Below, piece by piece: positions 1 to 6,700 of a stretch of DNA of 6,700 nucleotides (its first letter is position 1; each line of letters starts with the position of its first letter). A model generated the notes under the pieces. It made no database searches, was not told where the DNA came from, and worked only from the letters and a program-made list of their open reading frames with translations. The stretch lies in the IMG/VR virus record IMGVR_UViG_2534682222_000016. One strand, 5' to 3'. This DNA is from a virus (taxonomy: Duplodnaviria > Heunggongvirae > Uroviricota > Caudoviricetes). The position numbers were made by a program, and so were the translations under genes.

Positions 1-19
1 CTATTTGATAAATATTAAA

Positions 20-1315
20 TTAATTTTTCATTGCTTCGTTATGGGGCATGGTTGGGGCAAACTCGCTTAACTGTGTATTTAACAAAGCTACCTGTGCATT
101 ATTGTTTTCAGACATCCATTTTCCGTATACCTGAAATACCATTTGCGCATCTGCATGGCCCATCTGGTTTGCTATAAATGCCGGGTTAGCACCAGCTGTC
201 AGCGACCAGCAGGCATAAGTATGTCTCGACTGATATGATTTTCGATGGCGGAGTCCGGCACGTTTTATCGCTGCGTCCCACATCTGCCTTATTGAGTCAA
301 CGGTAAAATGGTCACCATAATTTTTTACTCTCGCTGACACTTCAGGTTGAAAAACAAAGGTGCATTTTTGTTTTTCTGTTCTGCCATACTCTCTGAGGTG
401 AACATCAATGATATGCTCTTTGCTCAGTCTCGTTAATGTCATCTGGCTCCGGAGAGCGTCGATTGCTGGCTTAATAAGATGAATGACCCGATTGGTTCCC
501 GCCTGTGTTTTTGGTACCGTGAAACGGTCTTTTGCTAAATTTCTCCTGATCATCATTGTTCCATTTTTCAGATCTATGTCCTCCCATCCAAGTGCACACA
601 GCTCACCAGGGCGAACGCCAGTATAAACAGAAACACACCATAAATTTTTTGCTTGCTGATTTCTGCACGCATCGATAAGACGGATAAATTCCTCCCGCGA
701 AAGAGGATCCGGAATGGTTCTTGATTCCTTTAATGGCGAGATCCCCTTAAGCGGATTATCTGGCAGGTAACCGTTATCAACACCAAACTGGAACACGGCG
801 TTAAGATTTGTCATGTAATTATTTACAGTTACAGCCGATCGCCCTGGTTGTGTAACAATATAGTTACTTTTGGGGATCTGGTATCCAGTCAGTAGCTCTT
901 TACGAACCTCCAGTAATTTTTCTTTATTAATCGATGAGGCAAGATTTTTTTCACCGATTATGCTCAGGATATTTTTGATGACGGCACGGTATGTGTTGAG
1001 TGATGTTTTGGCGACTTCAGTTTCTTTCAGTGCCAGAAATTTTTCAGCCAGTTCTTTTATGGTTAAATCTTGTCGGGCCTCACCAAATTTTTCCAGATTG
1101 CGTGAGGAGGGAAACTGTTTTGCATAGTCGAAAACACCAGTTTTTATTGCGTAACAAACAGAGGAGCGTAGTTCACCTGCAACGCGCCTGTTTTTTGCTG
1201 TGTCAGGAACCCCCAGATTTTCCCTGACTCTTACGCCTTTATAAACAAACCAGATACGTAATTTCCCTCCATGGTTTTCCACGCCTGTCGGATATTTCAT
1301 TTCAACTTCTCTCAT
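20..1315 (-). CDS. int: Phage-type tyrosine integrase (site-specific recombinase), 431 aa
   Basis: Long minus-strand ORF from the track. The C-terminal part contains tyrosine-recombinase catalytic-type residues (Arg in TGVRPGE, RHRKSYQSRHTYA, GHADAQMVFQVYGKW with the putative Tyr nucleophile). It sits at the prophage end, next to an excisionase-like gene. An alternative start is Met6 at 1300. Confidence 0.9.
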   Translation of the reverse strand: MREVEMKYPTGVENHGGKLRIWFVYKGVRVRENLGVPDTAKNRRVAGELRSSVCYAIKTGVFDYAKQFPSSRNLEKFGEARQDLTIKELAEKFLALKETEVAKTSLNTYRAVIKNILSIIGEKNLASSINKEKLLEVRKELLTGYQIPKSNYIVTQPGRSAVTVNNYMTNLNAVFQFGVDNGYLPDNPLKGISPLKESRTIPDPLSREEFIRLIDACRNQQAKNLWCVSVYTGVRPGELCALGWEDIDLKNGTMMIRRNLAKDRFTVPKTQAGTNRVIHLIKPAIDALRSQMTLTRLSKEHIIDVHLREYGRTEKQKCTFVFQPEVSARVKNYGDHFTVDSIRQMWDAAIKRAGLRHRKSYQSRHTYACWSLTAGANPAFIANQMGHADAQMVFQVYGKWMSENNNAQVALLNTQLSEFAPTMPHNEAMKN

Positions 1316-1334
1316 TAGTTAGTGTGGCTTTTAG

Positions 1335-1586
1335 TCAAGTAAGATGACGTCTTGGTCTCGCTGATGCCTGGCGCTCAATCCAGCGATCAATTTCTTCCAG
1401 GTTGTAAAAGCATGGACTGTTATCCCATGGCATACCGTCATGAGCGACATGCTTATATTCCCTTCCTTCCATAAACGATTTTTCCCGGGCCTTTTTTAAC
1501 GTACCTTTTTTTATTCCTTTCAGCGCAATTAACTGCTCTTCGGATACCCATTTGCCGGGAGAGACAATCATGATTACTTCGCTCAT
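1335..1586 (-). CDS. xis: Excisionase-like small DNA-binding protein (Xis), 83 aa
   Basis: An 83-aa basic ORF immediately upstream of int on the same strand, 19-bp gap. Purine-rich stretch (AAGAGATAAAGAAA) upstream of the ATG. Position and size fit a lambdoid Xis; the family assignment is by position and composition. Confidence 0.7.
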   Translation of the reverse strand: MSEVIMIVSPGKWVSEEQLIALKGIKKGTLKKAREKSFMEGREYKHVAHDGMPWDNSPCFYNLEEIDRWIERQASARPRRHLT

Positions 1587-1615
1587 CGATTTCTTTATCT
1601 CTTACATCAGACGAG

Positions 1616-1647
1616 CGCCGGTTGCAGAATACCAGTCACAACCGGCG
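1616..1647. repeat. Perfect 9-bp inverted repeat (CGCCGGTTG / CAACCGGCG) with 14-nt loop, in the exo-xis intergenic region
   Basis: Read directly: left arm 1616..1624, right arm 1639..1647, exact reverse complements. Lies 12 nt downstream of the exonuclease stop codon on the minus-strand transcript. No U-tract follows, so it is not a classical intrinsic terminator. Confidence 0.6.
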
Positions 1648-1658
1648 ACAGTTGAACA

Positions 1659-4130
1659 TTAAGAATCAGCCTGACTCGGGATCAGTTTTTGCCAGATAAC
1701 TGAAACGTATTTTGCCTGGTAACGGGCGTCATCAAGTGCATTATGGCGCTCACCTTCGAATGGAATAGCCGTTCTGGCATCGAAGTCTATGGCTTTCCCC
1801 AGCTCAACGATTGTGCGTACATCGCGATCGTTGTAGTAACGCCACGGGCAGGGGATCCCCTGCCGTTCGTATGAACGGCGCAAAATCGTGTTGTCGAAGT
1901 TGGCTCCATTTCCCCAAACCTGAACAAAAAATTCACCGGAGTTTTCGTCGATAAATTCCCGCAATTGTAACAGTGCATCATCTAACGGGATTTCATCGGT
2001 CATAATGGCAGATTGCGCTTCGCGTGATTGCTTAAGCCACCATTTAATGGTGTTCCGATCAATGACTCCGCCAGCAGTTTCCAGATCGATAGTCTTACTA
2101 AATTCCGGTCCCATATCTCCGGTTTGCGGATCGAAAAATATTGCACCTATTGAGATGATCGGGGCATCAGGATTTTTTCCCATGGTTTCAAGGTCGATCA
2201 TTAGATGGTCACACGTCCTGCTGGTGGATGTGATTTCGTGATGACCGTTCACCTTAATTGAGTGATCTGCCGTCTCGCCAGTTTCATTATCGCTATTGTG
2301 ATGCTGATTGCCGCCAGTGTTCTCCTTGTGTGGATGTTCAGCGCCTTCCATTTCCTCCGGATCATCTTCCTGAACTTCAACCTGATATTCTTCATCGAAT
2401 GTTTCTTGATATGTTGCGTCGCCCATCACCGCGCCACAATCAGGGCAGTTGCCGCCGCCGGTCTGACCGCAGGCGGTGCAGACTTTTTCCACTTCCTGTT
2501 GCGCCACTGGTTCAGGCTGTTTCGTTTCTGGCTCGTTTTGTAACGCATTTGTGCTGTTTTGTTCCGCTTTTTGGTAGTTCCGTTCCGATTCATGCTGGTT
2601 CTGGTTCACAGAATCGCGGGTCTGGATCCCCTTAACCCATTTCGGATCATTCGGGTCACTAATCCCTTCAACAAATTCACCACGTGATGCAGCAAGCAAC
2701 TTATCGGCGTCAGGCTGGCTGATATTGGCTGCCTGCATAATTTTGTTTACTTCGTCAGCGGTAACTTTTATCGGCTCTGGTTGTTCTGAATCTTCAGCGG
2801 TATCTACATTTTGCGGTAAGCCCGTGTATGTGCCATTTTTTCGGGCAAAATATTCTTCTTTTGTGATTTCAGTGGCGCCAGCAGCCAGTGCCTTATCCAG
2901 ACCAGAAAGTTTGTTTGCGCGACCGTATTTTTCTCCGTCCTTATCTGCGAAGAGGAAATAGAACGGCCCCTCACGCTCTACAGATGGTTCAGCTTCCGGC
3001 GCGGTTTCATTTTTTGGGATATCAGATACCTCAGTTTCCACTGCATCAGTTTGTGTTTCTGATGACTGGAGAACATCAACAGTGCCCAGGTCTGTTTCTT
3101 CATTCTCAAACACGCCCTTTGTCGTCAGGTATTCGCAGATATATTTGTTCAGTGCTATGGGATCTTTGTGAATGTCGATCGGACGCTCACGGACAAGGCC
3201 AAAAATAGTCTGGCGGTCGTAGCGAAGGGCATCAGGCTGTTTGCGCATTGATGCCGAGATACGCTTCCAGTCTTCGCGGTCGTTGTCGATAACTTCTTTT
3301 TTTGCCCAGCGATGGATGCTGCCGTCAATGTTTCCGGCATCCACATCACTAGGCCAGAGAGCGTAGGCCAGTTCGTCATCCAGTGTTTTCCATGTCTGCT
3401 TGTATTCGCGATGAATGGCAGCAATGACCGGGCTGATTTTTCCTGTTGAATTTTCAGTGTACTGTTGATTGGCTCTGGCGCGGGCGAGATCAACAACAGA
3501 CGTGTATTTTCCGGTTTCCTTGCGTTCACCTTCGCGACGTTTTTTCCAGATGCGCATCTCTGCCTGAATTTCGGGCCATTTAGCACCAGGAATACATTTA
3601 TGCTTAACCCACCCAATGGCGTGCAACTTAAGCTCCGGATACATGGCGTTAACTTCTGGCATTTTCATCAACGCTTCAACGATATGTCCGTCGAATGTTG
3701 CCATGTCTTCCTGCAACAATTCCTGTGCGCTAATAACCATATCAACGGTGATGTTTTCACATGTGTCGAACTTAACCATGACAGCGTTCTGTACTTCAGG
3801 GGCCAGCTTGTCAAAAGTGACGTTCATCGGATCGGATTCAGTCTCAACCGGGACAAAAGAAGCAGACTCCTCATCCCAGCGGTTTTCCTGCATATATTCA
3901 GCATCCCATGAATCGAGGGCAGGGCGGGGTATGCCAGGTTTATCCTCGCAGACAATAAATTTATAAGCGCAGTCCTGAGCAGCCGGATAATGTTCCAGGA
4001 ACTGCCAGTGAAATTTTGCTCGAGCACGGCGTTCGTCGCCAGCTTCAATGGCTGTGGCTACAGCCACAGCGCCTTCTTCCCTTGTTGCCAGTTCGTCAGG
4101 AATAGCGGCGCAAATAAAGACTTTACTCAT
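1659..4130 (-). CDS. Prophage exonuclease-like protein, 823 aa (often annotated exodeoxyribonuclease VIII/RecE-like; N-terminus YdfE-like), with C-terminal DEDDh 3'-5' exonuclease domain
   Basis: Single uninterrupted 823-aa ORF. C-terminal residues about 640-815 (nt about 1686..2213) carry the DnaQ-like motifs: Exo I MIDLETMG, Exo II WGNGANFD, Exo III HNALDDARYQ. Residues 551-565 (nt 2436..2480) form a CxxC-x7-CxxC zinc ribbon (CTACGQTGGGNCPDC). Residues about 340-640 are strongly acidic and low-complexity. Confidence 0.85.
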   Translation of the reverse strand: MSKVFICAAIPDELATREEGAVAVATAIEAGDERRARAKFHWQFLEHYPAAQDCAYKFIVCEDKPGIPRPALDSWDAEYMQENRWDEESASFVPVETESDPMNVTFDKLAPEVQNAVMVKFDTCENITVDMVISAQELLQEDMATFDGHIVEALMKMPEVNAMYPELKLHAIGWVKHKCIPGAKWPEIQAEMRIWKKRREGERKETGKYTSVVDLARARANQQYTENSTGKISPVIAAIHREYKQTWKTLDDELAYALWPSDVDAGNIDGSIHRWAKKEVIDNDREDWKRISASMRKQPDALRYDRQTIFGLVRERPIDIHKDPIALNKYICEYLTTKGVFENEETDLGTVDVLQSSETQTDAVETEVSDIPKNETAPEAEPSVEREGPFYFLFADKDGEKYGRANKLSGLDKALAAGATEITKEEYFARKNGTYTGLPQNVDTAEDSEQPEPIKVTADEVNKIMQAANISQPDADKLLAASRGEFVEGISDPNDPKWVKGIQTRDSVNQNQHESERNYQKAEQNSTNALQNEPETKQPEPVAQQEVEKVCTACGQTGGGNCPDCGAVMGDATYQETFDEEYQVEVQEDDPEEMEGAEHPHKENTGGNQHHNSDNETGETADHSIKVNGHHEITSTSRTCDHLMIDLETMGKNPDAPIISIGAIFFDPQTGDMGPEFSKTIDLETAGGVIDRNTIKWWLKQSREAQSAIMTDEIPLDDALLQLREFIDENSGEFFVQVWGNGANFDNTILRRSYERQGIPCPWRYYNDRDVRTIVELGKAIDFDARTAIPFEGERHNALDDARYQAKYVSVIWQKLIPSQADS

Positions 4131-4223
4131 TTTGTTTTAACCTCATGACAGATTTAAGGATGAACAAATCCCTGCCATTGCTGGCATATAAGAATGAAAC
4201 CGGATATTTATTACGGAACTGTT

Positions 4224-4415
4224 TTAAAGACCTGCCGGGATTTCGATATTATCCTGGTGAATAACTTTATCGACCGGGTAACAGTTACCGGGAATTTTCT
4301 GTTCGGTTGCTGCAGTCATACACTCCTGCATTGTCCTGTGAACACTGACTGCAATATCAACTGGCTCTCCGGAAACAAGAAAAACTGTCAGAACAAGCGC
4401 AAATGCTGAATTCAT
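4224..4415 (-). CDS. ydfD: YdfD-like small membrane/lysis protein, 63 aa
   Basis: Start chosen at the internal Met (MNSAFALVLTVFLVSG...), giving 63 aa with a hydrophobic N-terminal segment. Its ATG overlaps the dicB stop as ATGA (4412..4415), indicating translational coupling. Position directly downstream of dicB matches Qin ydfD; identity is by position, size and recall. Confidence 0.65.
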   Translation of the reverse strand: MNSAFALVLTVFLVSGEPVDIAVSVHRTMQECMTAATEQKIPGNCYPVDKVIHQDNIEIPAGL

Positions 4416-4600
4416 TGTGCACATCCTTTTGGCATCAGACGTAAACGAGCCAGCATTGAAACAATGCATATTTTATTTAATAGCTCCCGTTCTTGTTTTC
4501 TCTTGTTAATGGCATCTTCAGTAAATACAGGGTTACTGATAGTGACACCAATTTCAAAACAACCTTCAGACGTATTAACGTTTGGTAATAACGTTTTCAT
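4412..4600 (-). CDS. dicB: DicB cell-division inhibitor (MinC-dependent), 62 aa
   Basis: Internal start giving MKTLLPNVNTSEGCFEIGVTISNPVFTEDAINKRKQERELLNKICIVSMLARLRLMPKGCAQ, which I recognise as DicB. GAGGA lies 7 nt upstream of the ATG. Located immediately downstream of DicF as in the Qin dicB operon. Confidence 0.8.
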   Translation of the reverse strand: MKTLLPNVNTSEGCFEIGVTISNPVFTEDAINKRKQERELLNKICIVSMLARLRLMPKGCAQ

Positions 4601-4769
4601 TATCGCGTCCTCAACAATGAATTTTGTGATGCAGTGCCTGGTGCCTCCAGGTGACGTTAACCAGTTAACAATTAACGCCGGATACAGAGAATCCACCCAT
4701 AACACTGTTTTTGGTTTTAACTGTTCCGCGTGCGCTTAGCCGCATTCACCGCATCACAAAATTCACTTT

Positions 4770-4813
4770 AAAAACGGCGGCAGAGCAGTCACGGAGTAAA
4801 ACTGATACCGCCA
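4770..4813 (-). terminator. Intrinsic-terminator-like hairpin plus U-tract forming the DicF 3' end
   Basis: On the minus strand, GGCGG...(nested CAGU/ACUG)...GCCGCCG is followed by UUUUU (plus-strand AAAAA at 4770..4774). dicB follows downstream, so termination must be partial. Confidence 0.55.
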
Positions 4814-4827
4814 AACGTCACCAGAAA
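4772..4827 (-). ncRNA. dicF: DicF small regulatory RNA (Hfq-dependent antisense sRNA targeting ftsZ and other mRNAs)
   Basis: Reverse complement of 4775..4827 reads TTTCTGGTGACGTTTGGCGGTATCAGTTTTACTCCGTGACTGCTCTGCCGCCG followed by TTTTT. This matches the 53-nt DicF sequence as I remember it, and it sits between the ydfA-side genes and dicB. Confidence 0.85.
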
Positions 4828-5102
4828 ATTGATAACAGAGGGCGTTGCAGCGGGGTTGTCACTTAAGCGTATGGTCAACCTGACAACTCGGTGTCCTCAA
4901 CGGGGAAGGAATAACCCCGCCATACTTACCGCCGCGCCATTTCGCGGGTTGCCACAACCGGAAGCGCACGGTCGAATTAAATTTAACGACACCGTACAGT
5001 GAGACGAACTTCGCCGTGCGCTTTCGTGTTGTGTGCCTGCTTTTAACCACGTCAGGCGAGGTGGTATCCTTCTTATTCCGAATAACCAAGAAGGAAATCT
5101 AT

Positions 5103-5303
5103 ATGACTAAAGAAGAATTTGTCTCTTATATTTTTGATAAAACGGTTGAAATGTATGCCGCTACTTACGGGTCCTGTAATCCTCTGAATAAACCAGAGGG
5201 GAAAGATGATTTCGACAAAATTTACCGCTTCTTGGAGGACCGCTATATCAAAAGGTTAGAGGACGCAGGGATCAAATCCCCAGTGAAGTCACCATTGTCC
5301 TGA
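5103..5303 (+). CDS. Candidate small protein (66 aa), function unknown, antisense to the dicB-operon transcript
   Basis: ATG at 5103 is preceded by AAGGA (5091..5095) at 7-nt spacing. The ORF encodes a charged, helix-like sequence (MTKEEFVSYIFDKTVEMYAATYG...). Its 3' end overlaps the 3' end of the convergent 121-aa ORF by 32 nt. No homolog recognised; it may be a chance ORF. Confidence 0.35.
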   Translation: MTKEEFVSYIFDKTVEMYAATYGSCNPLNKPEGKDDFDKIYRFLEDRYIKRLEDAGIKSPVKSPLS

Positions 5304-5637
5304 GAACTTGCAGGACGTCATGATCGTAACTTCCATCCAAACCGCGACGGCAAATTGCTTCTCGTATTACCGGAAGCAGTTCGCTGGAAATCTCGGTGCA
5401 TATTTCACCTGCTAATACGCCTGGCTCAAGTGAGAATATTGGTGAACTTACGGTCTTGGTCTCGACAGTTTCAGAGTCAGTGCCAACATTATAAAGCTCA
5501 ACGAAAGCGGTCTTGATTTTCCGGGCCAGATCTTTTGCTGGCTCGCTTGCAATATCTTTCCCGATTTCTCGCAGCACAGAATGCAATGTATGAGCTGCTG
5601 TTTTCTGTACATCAGACGGTAAATCTTTAAATTCCAT
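5272..5637 (-). CDS. Hypothetical protein, 121 aa (position corresponds to ydfB/ydfC of Qin)
   Basis: Minus-strand ORF with codon composition typical of coding sequence. GAGG lies 6 nt upstream of the ATG at 5637. An alternative start at 5649 overlaps the ydfA stop as TGATG. Family assignment is by position only. Confidence 0.6.
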   Translation of the reverse strand: MEFKDLPSDVQKTAAHTLHSVLREIGKDIASEPAKDLARKIKTAFVELYNVGTDSETVETKTVSSPIFSLEPGVLAGEICTEISSELLPVIREAICRRGLDGSYDHDVLQVLRTMVTSLGI

Positions 5638-5648
5638 CGTCAGCCTCA

Positions 5649-5801
5649 TCAGTCAGTGTTTCTGGCTAACCAGCAACGCGCGCCAGATTCGGTTTTAAAC
5701 GTTTTGCTTTTGGTATATGTCATCGCGGTGAACGTACCGTCCTGGTTGGGGAACACGCCACATACCAGAGATTCGCTGTTGCCAAGATCGATAGTATCCA
5801 T
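5649..5801 (-). CDS. ydfA: YdfA-like small protein, 50 aa
   Basis: Internal ATG at 5801 with GAGG 5 nt upstream gives MDTIDLGNSESLVCGVFPNQDGTFTAMTYTKSKTFKTESGARCWLARNTD. The longer track ORF (start 5957) would contain the predicted promoter -35/-10 and operator, so the short form is preferred. First gene after the leftward promoter, as ydfA is in Qin. Confidence 0.65.
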   Translation of the reverse strand: MDTIDLGNSESLVCGVFPNQDGTFTAMTYTKSKTFKTESGARCWLARNTD

Positions 5802-5877
5802 GCTGACCTCATTTCCCCTTAACGCCGGGGTAGCGGAACTGTTTGCTGAGAACACCGTGCGGTGTGTTGATGGAGGT

Positions 5878-5960
5878 AATTTAGATTTCTCATTATTTTT
5901 CGTCAAGGTTTTTTGATGAGAAAACTCAAGTATTGGCGCAAGATAAAGCCAATACATTGA
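5878..5960. promoter_or_regulatory. Leftward early promoter (dicBp-like) with operator-like motif and adjacent inverted repeat
   Basis: On the minus strand: -35 TTGACG (plus 5901..5906), 17-nt spacer, -10 TAAATT (plus 5878..5883). Just upstream lies ATGAGAAAACTCAAGTATTGG (5916..5936), sharing a roughly 20-nt motif with the dicA/dicC intergenic region. It overlaps a perfect 8-bp inverted repeat GTATTGGC (5930..5937) / GCCAATAC (5948..5955), which could also act as a terminator-like hairpin after dicA. Confidence 0.5.
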
Positions 5961-5993
5961 AATGTAAGGCTTTAAAATTTTGTGAAGGGATGA

Positions 5994-6401
5994 TTATTGA
6001 TGCTTGTTGCGTTTGCGAGCCTCTAATAGCTCGGTGAACAGGCGATTAAAATTCTCAACGCGGGCGCGGAGTTCGCTGAGTTGTGCTTGTTGCTCTGATT
6101 TAGGAAGTGCGCGATACAAACGCAGCATCTCTAACTCATCTTCCGATAAGTCTAAGGCACTATCGAGTGAAACAGGGGGAGCTGGTGTTTTGTCCTCGTC
6201 GCCAAACAGTATCCAGGTTGGTGAACATTGCAATACCTCGGCGAGGCGATGCAAATTTTGCCCACGCGGGGCTGTATGGTCACTTTCCCATAATGAAATT
6301 GATGAGCCAGATACGCCAGCAGCTTTGCTTAAACCGTTTTGACTTAAGCCTACCTGCTTACGTCTTTCTCTAATGCGTTGACCTAAAGTTTTCTCGTTCA
6401 T
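5994..6401 (-). CDS. dicA: DicA-like XRE-family HTH repressor (prophage immunity repressor), 135 aa
   Basis: Start at the internal Met gives an N-terminal HTH (MNEKTLGQRIRERRKQVGLSQNGLSKAAGVSGSSISLWE...) followed by LQCSPTWILFGDEDK, which I recognise as DicA/RacR-family. It is divergent from a Cro-like gene. An alternative upstream ATG at 6452 has no RBS and would overlap the rightward promoter. Confidence 0.85.
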   Translation of the reverse strand: MNEKTLGQRIRERRKQVGLSQNGLSKAAGVSGSSISLWESDHTAPRGQNLHRLAEVLQCSPTWILFGDEDKTPAPPVSLDSALDLSEDELEMLRLYRALPKSEQQAQLSELRARVENFNRLFTELLEARKRNKHQ

Positions 6402-6478
6402 ATTTAGATATCTTAATAACCCTTGACTTGAGATTCCTTGAGTGATTAGCATTGAGAAAACTCAATATTGGAGGTGCG
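6402..6478. promoter_or_regulatory. Divergent promoter/operator region of the dicA-dicC immunity switch
   Basis: Rightward candidate promoter: -35 TTGACT (6423..6428), 18-nt spacer, -10 TAGCAT (6447..6452). The inverted repeat TTGAG-AAAA-CTCAA (6452..6465) followed by TATTGG overlaps the -10 and start region. TTGAG half-sites also occur at 6428 and 6438. GGAGG (6470..6474) is the RBS for the plus-strand gene. Confidence 0.6.
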
Positions 6479-6700
6479 ATGTTTAAATCAGACGTAATTA
6501 ATTTTTACGGTACGAAAGCCAAAGTAGCGAAAGCTGCTGGCGTTGACCCATCTGCTGTTTCTCAATGGCAAGAGCTGGTTCCTGAAGGTCGCGCGATGCG
6601 TCTAGCCAGGCAGGCTATAAAGATATGGGACCATTTGTGGCTGCAATACACGAGTGGGCGGACCTTGAATCATACTTTGAGGTGTATCGTGATAATCTGA
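6479..6700 (+). CDS. dicC: DicC/Cro-like small HTH regulator, 73 aa
   Basis: ATG at 6479 is preceded by GGAGG at 4-nt spacing. The N-terminus FYGTKAKVAKAAGVDPSAVSQWQ is a Cro/YdaS-type HTH. In-frame TGA at 6698..6700 ends the gene exactly at the window edge. Divergent from dicA across an operator region. Confidence 0.7.
   Translation: MFKSDVINFYGTKAKVAKAAGVDPSAVSQWQELVPEGRAMRLARQAIKIWDHLWLQYTSGRTLNHTLRCIVII

Follow-up and report, generated by a model that had tools for sequence, protein, structure and literature searches.

An undamaged integration and excision arm in a cryptic Qin-family prophage remnant of Escherichia coli

We analyzed a 6,700-nucleotide (nt) stretch of viral DNA (IMG/VR record IMGVR_UViG_2534682222_000016), referred to here in its entirety as the window. 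The window very probably comprises the integrase-proximal arm and immunity region of a Qin-family lambdoid prophage of the mEp460_ev081/HannyBb type, inserted in the 5' end of ydfJ and surviving as a cryptic remnant that is structurally competent for excision. The undamaged end of the prophage, which carries the integrase (int), excisionase (xis), and exonuclease (exo) genes, is in itself ordinary; it is very common in E. coli and already known. The lineage is instructive in another respect, as it shows that a prophage remnant may keep every structural requirement for excision yet lose its switch, its replication genes, and its particle genes.

A six-frame list of open reading frames (ORFs) contains three uninterrupted minus-strand ORFs at 20-1315 (431 aa), 1335-1586 (83 aa), and 1659-4130 (823 aa), with no insertion sequence (IS) within them. 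The original prediction, made from the letters of the window, had described these as uninterrupted integrase, excisionase, and exonuclease genes in a Qin-like context. Its coordinates agree with the ORF list, and Pfam matches confirm that the genes are genuine. The context is also borne out, as dicB, ydfD, a DUF1391/ydfA gene, the DicF RNA, and a DicA-family repressor gene were all found, and the element occupies the chromosomal site between rspB and ydfJ. Assignment to the Qin family draws on two findings: a dicB-dicF operon lies under a DicA/DicC-type immunity region (DicB, DicF, the DicA-family repressor, and the N-terminal part of DicC were found), and the element is inserted in the 5' end of ydfJ and flanked on each side by a hybrid att site.

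The integrase matches both Arm-DNA-bind_2 (PF12167; 82.9 bits, residues 9 to 72 of the 431-aa form) and Phage_integrase (PF00589; 66.2 bits against a cut-off of 27.1). The N-terminal arm-type DNA-binding domain is thus present, and it is this same part that has been lost from K-12 IntQ. Translation probably begins at the ATG at 1300, giving 426 aa, rather than at the ATG at 1315, which gives the maximal ORF of 431 aa, because 1300 is the RefSeq start in relatives, is preceded by the purine-rich GAGAGAAG (the ATG at 1315 has no purine-rich upstream element), and fits the alignment with IntR of the Rac prophage, which starts at residue 2 of the 426-aa form. Across its full length the protein is 43% identical to Rac IntR, with R231, K264, Y356, R359, H382, and Y392 conserved. 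Five of these, R231, K264, R359, H382, and Y392, give the predicted protein the R-K-H-R-H/W-Y catalytic signature. The integrase differs from that of HannyBb by 3 substitutions.

The excisionase gene lies directly upstream of int, with 19 nt between its stop codon and the ATG at 1315 and 34 nt to the preferred start at 1300. Its product is a full-length match to the DUF1233 profile (PF06806; 108.1 bits, profile positions 1-69 of 70) and is identical to HannyBb Xis. In the O26 E. coli strain RM10386 (L012 1312-4269), the same arm is found with int and exo intact but with xis split by the IS66-family element ISCro1; this interruption is an independent route to immobilizing a Qin-type prophage.

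The att core was defined by comparing HannyBb attP, the integrase-side junction, the K-12 far junction, and the empty site. The attP site reads GTGAATTATGGATTTC followed by AAGAG, the near junction reads TTGAATTTATGGATTTC followed by AAGAG, and the far junction reads GTGAATTATGGATTTC followed by CAGTT. The exact common core is TTATGGATTTC (11 bp), which extends to 16-17 bp when a one-T indel is permitted. Position 1 of the window is 18-33 nt to the right of the near core, so that the window contains no att site. Window positions equal L004 (NCTC contig) coordinates minus 3522, which places the near junction at L004 3490; the far junction is at L014 15396. In the window lineage both hybrid att junctions are intact, with their cores 20,059 bp apart, and identity to the arms of HannyBb attP is 98.5% for the phage-side P arm and 99.6% for the P' arm. 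A search for direct repeats at the two ends, which had been proposed along with the original prediction, therefore succeeded: both junctions were found, sharing the 11-bp core. After excision, attP would be expected to contain …ACACCTGTGAATTATGGATTTCAAGAGTCATG… and the restored attB to contain …GCGCTTGAATTTATGGATTTCCAGTTATATTCGC…, and translation of the reconstructed attB gives the N-terminus of YdfJ without a break. For one ydfJ prophage, attP has been obtained by polymerase chain reaction of the attP region (PMC8112680). We consider excision structurally possible because int, xis, and both att junctions are present in the window lineage. Apart from these junctions, ACCTGTGCATTATTGTTTTCA at the 3' end of int (window 90-110) shares 18 of 21 positions with the attP core region ACCTGTGAATTATGGATTTCA, from which it is 127 nt away, and could be a secondary core-type site or a chance resemblance.

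The element is a cryptic remnant. Relative to the 13P460A prophage, 7.67 kb is missing at 6604/6605, a deletion that takes the cro C-terminus, ydaT, an O-like replication gene, DUF977, hokD, rem, ydfU, Q, a lipocalin gene, and the 5' half of ybgA. What is left of the cro/dicC-like gene begins a 73-aa fusion ORF that stops exactly at the window end and matches the DicC model at positions 1-43 of 75, where its 80 bits fall short of the cut-off of 130. No base distinguishes the window from GCA_020553905.1 (100% identity), and one mismatch separates it from a 5.2-Mb NCTC contig (UGGI01000001.1). Members of the lineage include the NCTC isolate of assembly GCA_900450495.1 and the source of read set SRR1816028. 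In the source lineage, an IS3 element about 20 nt past the window end interrupts ybgA. The rest of the element, followed in the NCTC contig, keeps the lysis cassette and the small terminase gene; a 166-aa large-terminase (terL) stub is then joined to tail gene I, with about 13 kb of head and tail genes gone, and the J protein is cut to 529 aa and abuts tfa, beyond which lie the pin invertase gene, ydfK-like genes, the intact far junction, and ydfJ (L014 10001-15396). A search of complete genomes for the terL-to-gpI deletion found similar junctions only, none of them identical. The original prediction had held that this copy may be excision-competent, and that a missing or degraded far arm would speak against it. 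The first part stands insofar as int, xis, and both att junctions are present. The far arm, however, is heavily degraded by the 7.67-kb deletion, the IS3 insertion, and the loss of about 13 kb of head and tail genes, and rem and a complete cro/dicC-like gene are gone; the far att junction has come through intact.

These losses bear on whether the intact arm belongs to a complete, inducible Qin-type prophage, that is, to a live phage. Such a reading might be suggested by the near identity of the int-xis-exo arm to that of isolated phages and by strains such as 13P460A, which hold an almost full-length prophage at the same site. We regard it as extremely improbable, as it is refuted for the window lineage by the deletion junction, the IS3 in ybgA, the truncated TerL and J proteins, and the total length of 20 kb. 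Compared with both 13P460A and HannyBb, the replication genes, Q, and the complete head and tail sets of a viable lambdoid phage are missing.

The deletion junction could in principle be an artifact of assembly or of window construction, with the prophage really contiguous at 6604/6605. The junction is indeed absent from all complete RefSeq E. coli genomes and GTDB species representatives searched. Yet 129 index blocks of publicly available assemblies (NCBI, ENA, and Logan) contain a protein identical to the 73-aa fusion, one NCTC contig spans the whole element, and the joined segments lie in one prophage, in the same orientation and 7.67 kb apart, as a simple deletion predicts. We rejected an assembly artifact on the strength of the exact fusion protein in public assemblies and give the idea hardly any credence; for the same reason we take the deletion to be real and to mark a lineage.

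Comparison with Qin of E. coli K-12 (NC_000913.3) shows what the same arm looks like when it has been damaged. A lack of collinearity with Qin would have spoken against the prediction, but the two are collinear by BLASTN over window 1-1179 (intQ'; 99.3% identity) and 3364-5044 (ydfE'-ydfD-dicB-dicF; 98.3% identity). The intervening segment, 1180-3363, takes in the whole of xis together with integrase codons 1 to about 46 and exonuclease codons 257-823. K-12 IntQ accordingly consists of integrase residues 47-431 after 13 IS-derived residues, having lost about the first 46, while xis is wholly gone. K-12 YdfE consists of 256 residues that are 100% identical to the exonuclease N-terminus and a further 50 aa read through into IS2. 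The description of the K-12 region as disrupted (intQ, IS2, truncated ydfE) was therefore correct according to both the alignment and the K-12 annotation, and the suggestion that the window displays the full-length form of ydfE is upheld by the placement of K-12 YdfE at the exonuclease N-terminus. K-12 Qin derives from such a full-length arm by an IS2-associated deletion of 2,184 bp.

In other respects the two elements correspond closely. K-12 Qin shares the site between rspB/ynfP and ydfJ, the att core, and the gene order int-(xis)-exo-ydfD-dicB-dicF-...-ydfA-repressor-cro. The alleles differ in the ydfB/ydfC segment and in the immunity genes, as expected because lambdoid prophages are mosaics. 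K-12 Qin also retains rem, Q, relBE, and a complete dicC, all of which are deleted in the window lineage. The Rac arm (intR-xisR ... recT-recE) is a more distant parallel. Its integrase has the same active-site pattern as that of the window; its XisR resembles the window Xis weakly, with 26% identity over 62 aa (the Pfam DUF1233 scan covered the window Xis only), and it is integrated at ttcA rather than ydfJ.

We counted these arrangements in 5,426 complete E. coli genomes, scoring the int-xis-exo arm as contiguous where at least 80% of window 1-4200 was found in one place. The contiguous arm is present in 2,286 genomes and the K-12-type ydfE'-IS2E-intQ' junction in 351. The integrase-side att junction occurs in 2,710 genomes and the far junction in 3,169, and the reconstructed empty attB, with uninterrupted ydfJ, in 2,009. 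The intact arm is thus the majority state among occupied ydfJ sites and is not special. Qin has been reported at the ydfJ 5' end in about half of strains, in sizes from 11 to 97 kb (PMC6379469). Isolated phages carry the arm as well: window 1-6615 is 99.3% identical in DNA sequence to HannyBb and 96.2% to mEp460_ev081, and the exonuclease differs from that of HannyBb by 5 substitutions. These temperate phages (and also PhiR42_1 and Tritos) combine the same arm with replication, Q, lysis, head, and tail genes in 45-kb genomes, whereas the window element is a 20-kb remnant without most of the replication, Q, head, and tail genes of mEp460_ev081 and HannyBb. A K-12-centered view is corrected by these observations, in that the disrupted intQ'/ydfE' arrangement is a minority scar while the intact arm is common and is found in isolated phages too.

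How the retained module could operate is suggested by the immunity region. The window repressor is 57% identical to K-12 DicA and consists of a helix-turn-helix domain only, with no peptidase domain. In K-12, DicA represses dicBp, Rem is a DicA antirepressor, and DicA and DicC behave like CI and Cro; mEp460_ev081 is a functional temperate phage with dicB, dicF, dicA/C, and rem (10.1101/2023.04.14.536235). By analogy, xis and int would lie at the end of a leftward operon (ydfA-like ... dicF-dicB-ydfD-exo-xis-int) that begins downstream of the repressor gene, as in K-12, and that the DicA-family repressor would hold off. On derepression, the arm-binding integrase and the DUF1233 excisionase, probably with the host protein IHF (integration host factor), would recombine the two junctions across TTATGGATTTC. 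Excision would restore an uninterrupted ydfJ and free a 20-kb circle, and since that circle could neither replicate nor be packaged, the outcome would be curing rather than phage production. Should excision occur, its sole consequence would be the loss of dicB and dicF and the restoration of ydfJ. The deletion removes both known routes to derepression of the xis/int operon, namely the rem antirepressor and a complete cro/dicC-like gene. Because rem and a functional cro are lost and the repressor lacks a peptidase domain, derepression, and hence excision, should be rare and should need either spontaneous switching or a heterologous antirepressor. The sole substitution in the immunity region relative to 13P460A is a T-to-C change at base 6450, which turns a -10-like hexamer at 6447-6452, ahead of the cro/dicC-like gene, from TAGTAT into TAGCAT.

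Several points weigh against this interpretation. The predicted integrase has tyrosine (Y356) at its His-I position, exactly as in Rac IntR. We infer expression of xis and int from a DicA-controlled promoter on the basis of K-12 operon structure, and the relation between Rem and DicA is known for K-12 alleles, to which the window repressor is just 57% identical. A consensus scan of the window for promoters and terminators did not exceed the shuffled expectation (7 promoter-like sites against 10.5 and 6 terminator-like sites against 7.3), and we used the promoter scan solely to place two plausible promoter-like sites.

Alternatively, the module may be intact on paper but grounded, either because xis and int are never expressed or because Int is inactive for some hidden reason, so that the element would be fixed like K-12 Qin. 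Excision of K-12 Qin went undetected, which was attributed to inactive intQ, whereas Rac does excise in K-12 (PMC3105296). A grounded module would be in keeping with the location of rem within the deleted 7.67 kb, with a cro/dicC-like gene that keeps 42 of 75 codons, with a repressor that has no peptidase domain and would not be SOS-cleavable, and with the substitution at 6450 in the cro-side -10-like hexamer; the recurrence of the fusion ORF in 129 index blocks implies, moreover, that the remnant is stably inherited. On the other hand, dicBp is derepressed spontaneously and independently of Rem in a subpopulation of K-12 cells (10.1101/2023.04.14.536235), and other cryptic prophages of K-12 excise at low frequency without induction (PMC3105296). 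Heterologous antirepressors of co-resident prophages could also act on the repressor, and Int and Xis differ from the HannyBb proteins at 3 and 0 residues, respectively. We consider a permanently grounded element a serious possibility, though short of probable, and favor a remnant that is still structurally able to excise.

The analysis opens no long-standing question, and the sole loose end of wider interest is the YdfE-type exonuclease. Three parts make up the 823-aa protein: a YdfE region at the N-terminus, a middle section that it has in common with RecE, and, toward the C-terminus at residues 642-813, a DEDDh 3'-5' exonuclease domain, for which the Rv2179c-like family PF16473 gives an end-to-end match of the C-terminal 180 aa (225.7 bits). 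All DEDDh motifs are present: Exo I (D646-L-E648), Exo II (N-F-D746), and Exo III (H796-NALD-D801). Precomputed Pfam assignments list PF27430 (YdfE_N), PF27432 (YdfE_C), and PF16473; because they name both YdfE families, the full-length form is already known to curators. Among solved structures, PDB 8KEL is the closest; this 227-residue 'Exodeoxyribonuclease' matches the C-terminal domain (E = 1.1e-6), and we take it to be DexA of phage T4. It has the same exonuclease domain, with D646, E648, D746, H796, and D801 kept in the window protein. However, 8KEL is apparently a small single-domain enzyme, as Rv2179c apparently is, whereas the window domain forms the tail of a multi-domain protein with a RecE-like scaffold.

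The relation to RecE is partial. By BLASTP, exonuclease residues 262-625 align to residues 278-591 of K-12 RecE and are very similar over the last ~150, and a CxxC...CxxC motif at residues 551-566 lies inside this shared region. An identity as RecE, or exodeoxyribonuclease VIII, was considered and rejected: the NCBIfam model NF007259 gives 283 bits where its cut-off is 1269, with a match at profile positions 271-602 of 877 only, the BLASTP alignment covers RecE residues 278-591 only, and the C-terminus is Rv2179c-like rather than the RecE 5'-3' nuclease. The label 'exodeoxyribonuclease VIII' that the gene carries in phage records is misleading. In Rac, recE is accompanied by recT; in the window there is no recT partner, with no match to a RecT/Bet/Erf family among the scanned window ORFs, and the neighbors of exo are xis and ydfD/dicB. 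Tentatively, and with the odds rather against it, the protein could be a domain-swapped cousin of RecE, in which a shared central scaffold with a zinc-ribbon-like motif carries a DEDDh 3'-5' domain in place of the 5'-3' nuclease and works with no RecT; as such it could define a new phage exonuclease module. A literature search on the whole word 'ydfE' found no functional study. In a widespread phage family the gene occupies the place of the recombination module, and its role, whether in recombination, DNA-end processing, or anti-defense, appears uncharacterized.

Table 1. Features of the window, by position
Feature	Position	Strand	Basis
P' arm end, between att core and integrase stop	1..19	.	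99.6% identity to HannyBb attP arm
Tyrosine integrase, probably 426 aa (431 aa if ORF taken to ATG 1315)	20..1300	-	PF12167 and PF00589
2,184-bp segment missing from K-12 Qin, with a 706-bp IS2E remnant exactly in its place	1180..3363	.	BLASTN and K-12 annotation
Excisionase, DUF1233 family, 83 aa	1335..1586	-	Pfam PF06806
Full-length YdfE-type exonuclease, 823 aa	1659..4130	-	Pfam, PDB match, RecE alignment
Exonuclease-gene part surviving as K-12 ydfE pseudogene (aa 1-256, 100% identical)	3364..4130	-	BLASTN and protein alignment
ydfD, DUF1482 lysis protein	4224..4415	-	Pfam and RefSeq annotation of identical relative
dicB, cell-division inhibitor	4412..4600	-	Pfam PF05358, 134.6 bits, and RefSeq annotation of relative
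DicF small RNA	4775..4826	-	Rfam RF00039, 72.5 bits against gathering score 48
ydfA-like DUF1391 gene, first of leftward (dicB) operon	5649..5801	-	Pfam; 92.6% identity to K-12 ydfA; RefSeq annotation of relative
DicA-family repressor, CI analogue, 135 aa	5994..6401	-	NCBIfam NF007257, 239 bits against cut-off 101
Truncated cro/dicC-like gene fused to out-of-frame ybgA, 73-aa fusion ORF	6479..6700	+	Native for first 42 codons only
Deletion junction, 2-bp 'TA' overlap	6603..6604	.	Comparison with complete prophage of strain 13P460A
Internal fragment of ybgA-family moron gene	6605..6700	+	Match to 13P460A prophage, 7.67 kb further on

One further segment, window 5045-5669, has no counterpart in K-12 Qin. 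In the place of ydfB/ydfC it holds two ORFs, neither with a Pfam match: one of 121-125 aa on the minus strand and an overlapping one of 66-95 aa on the plus strand.

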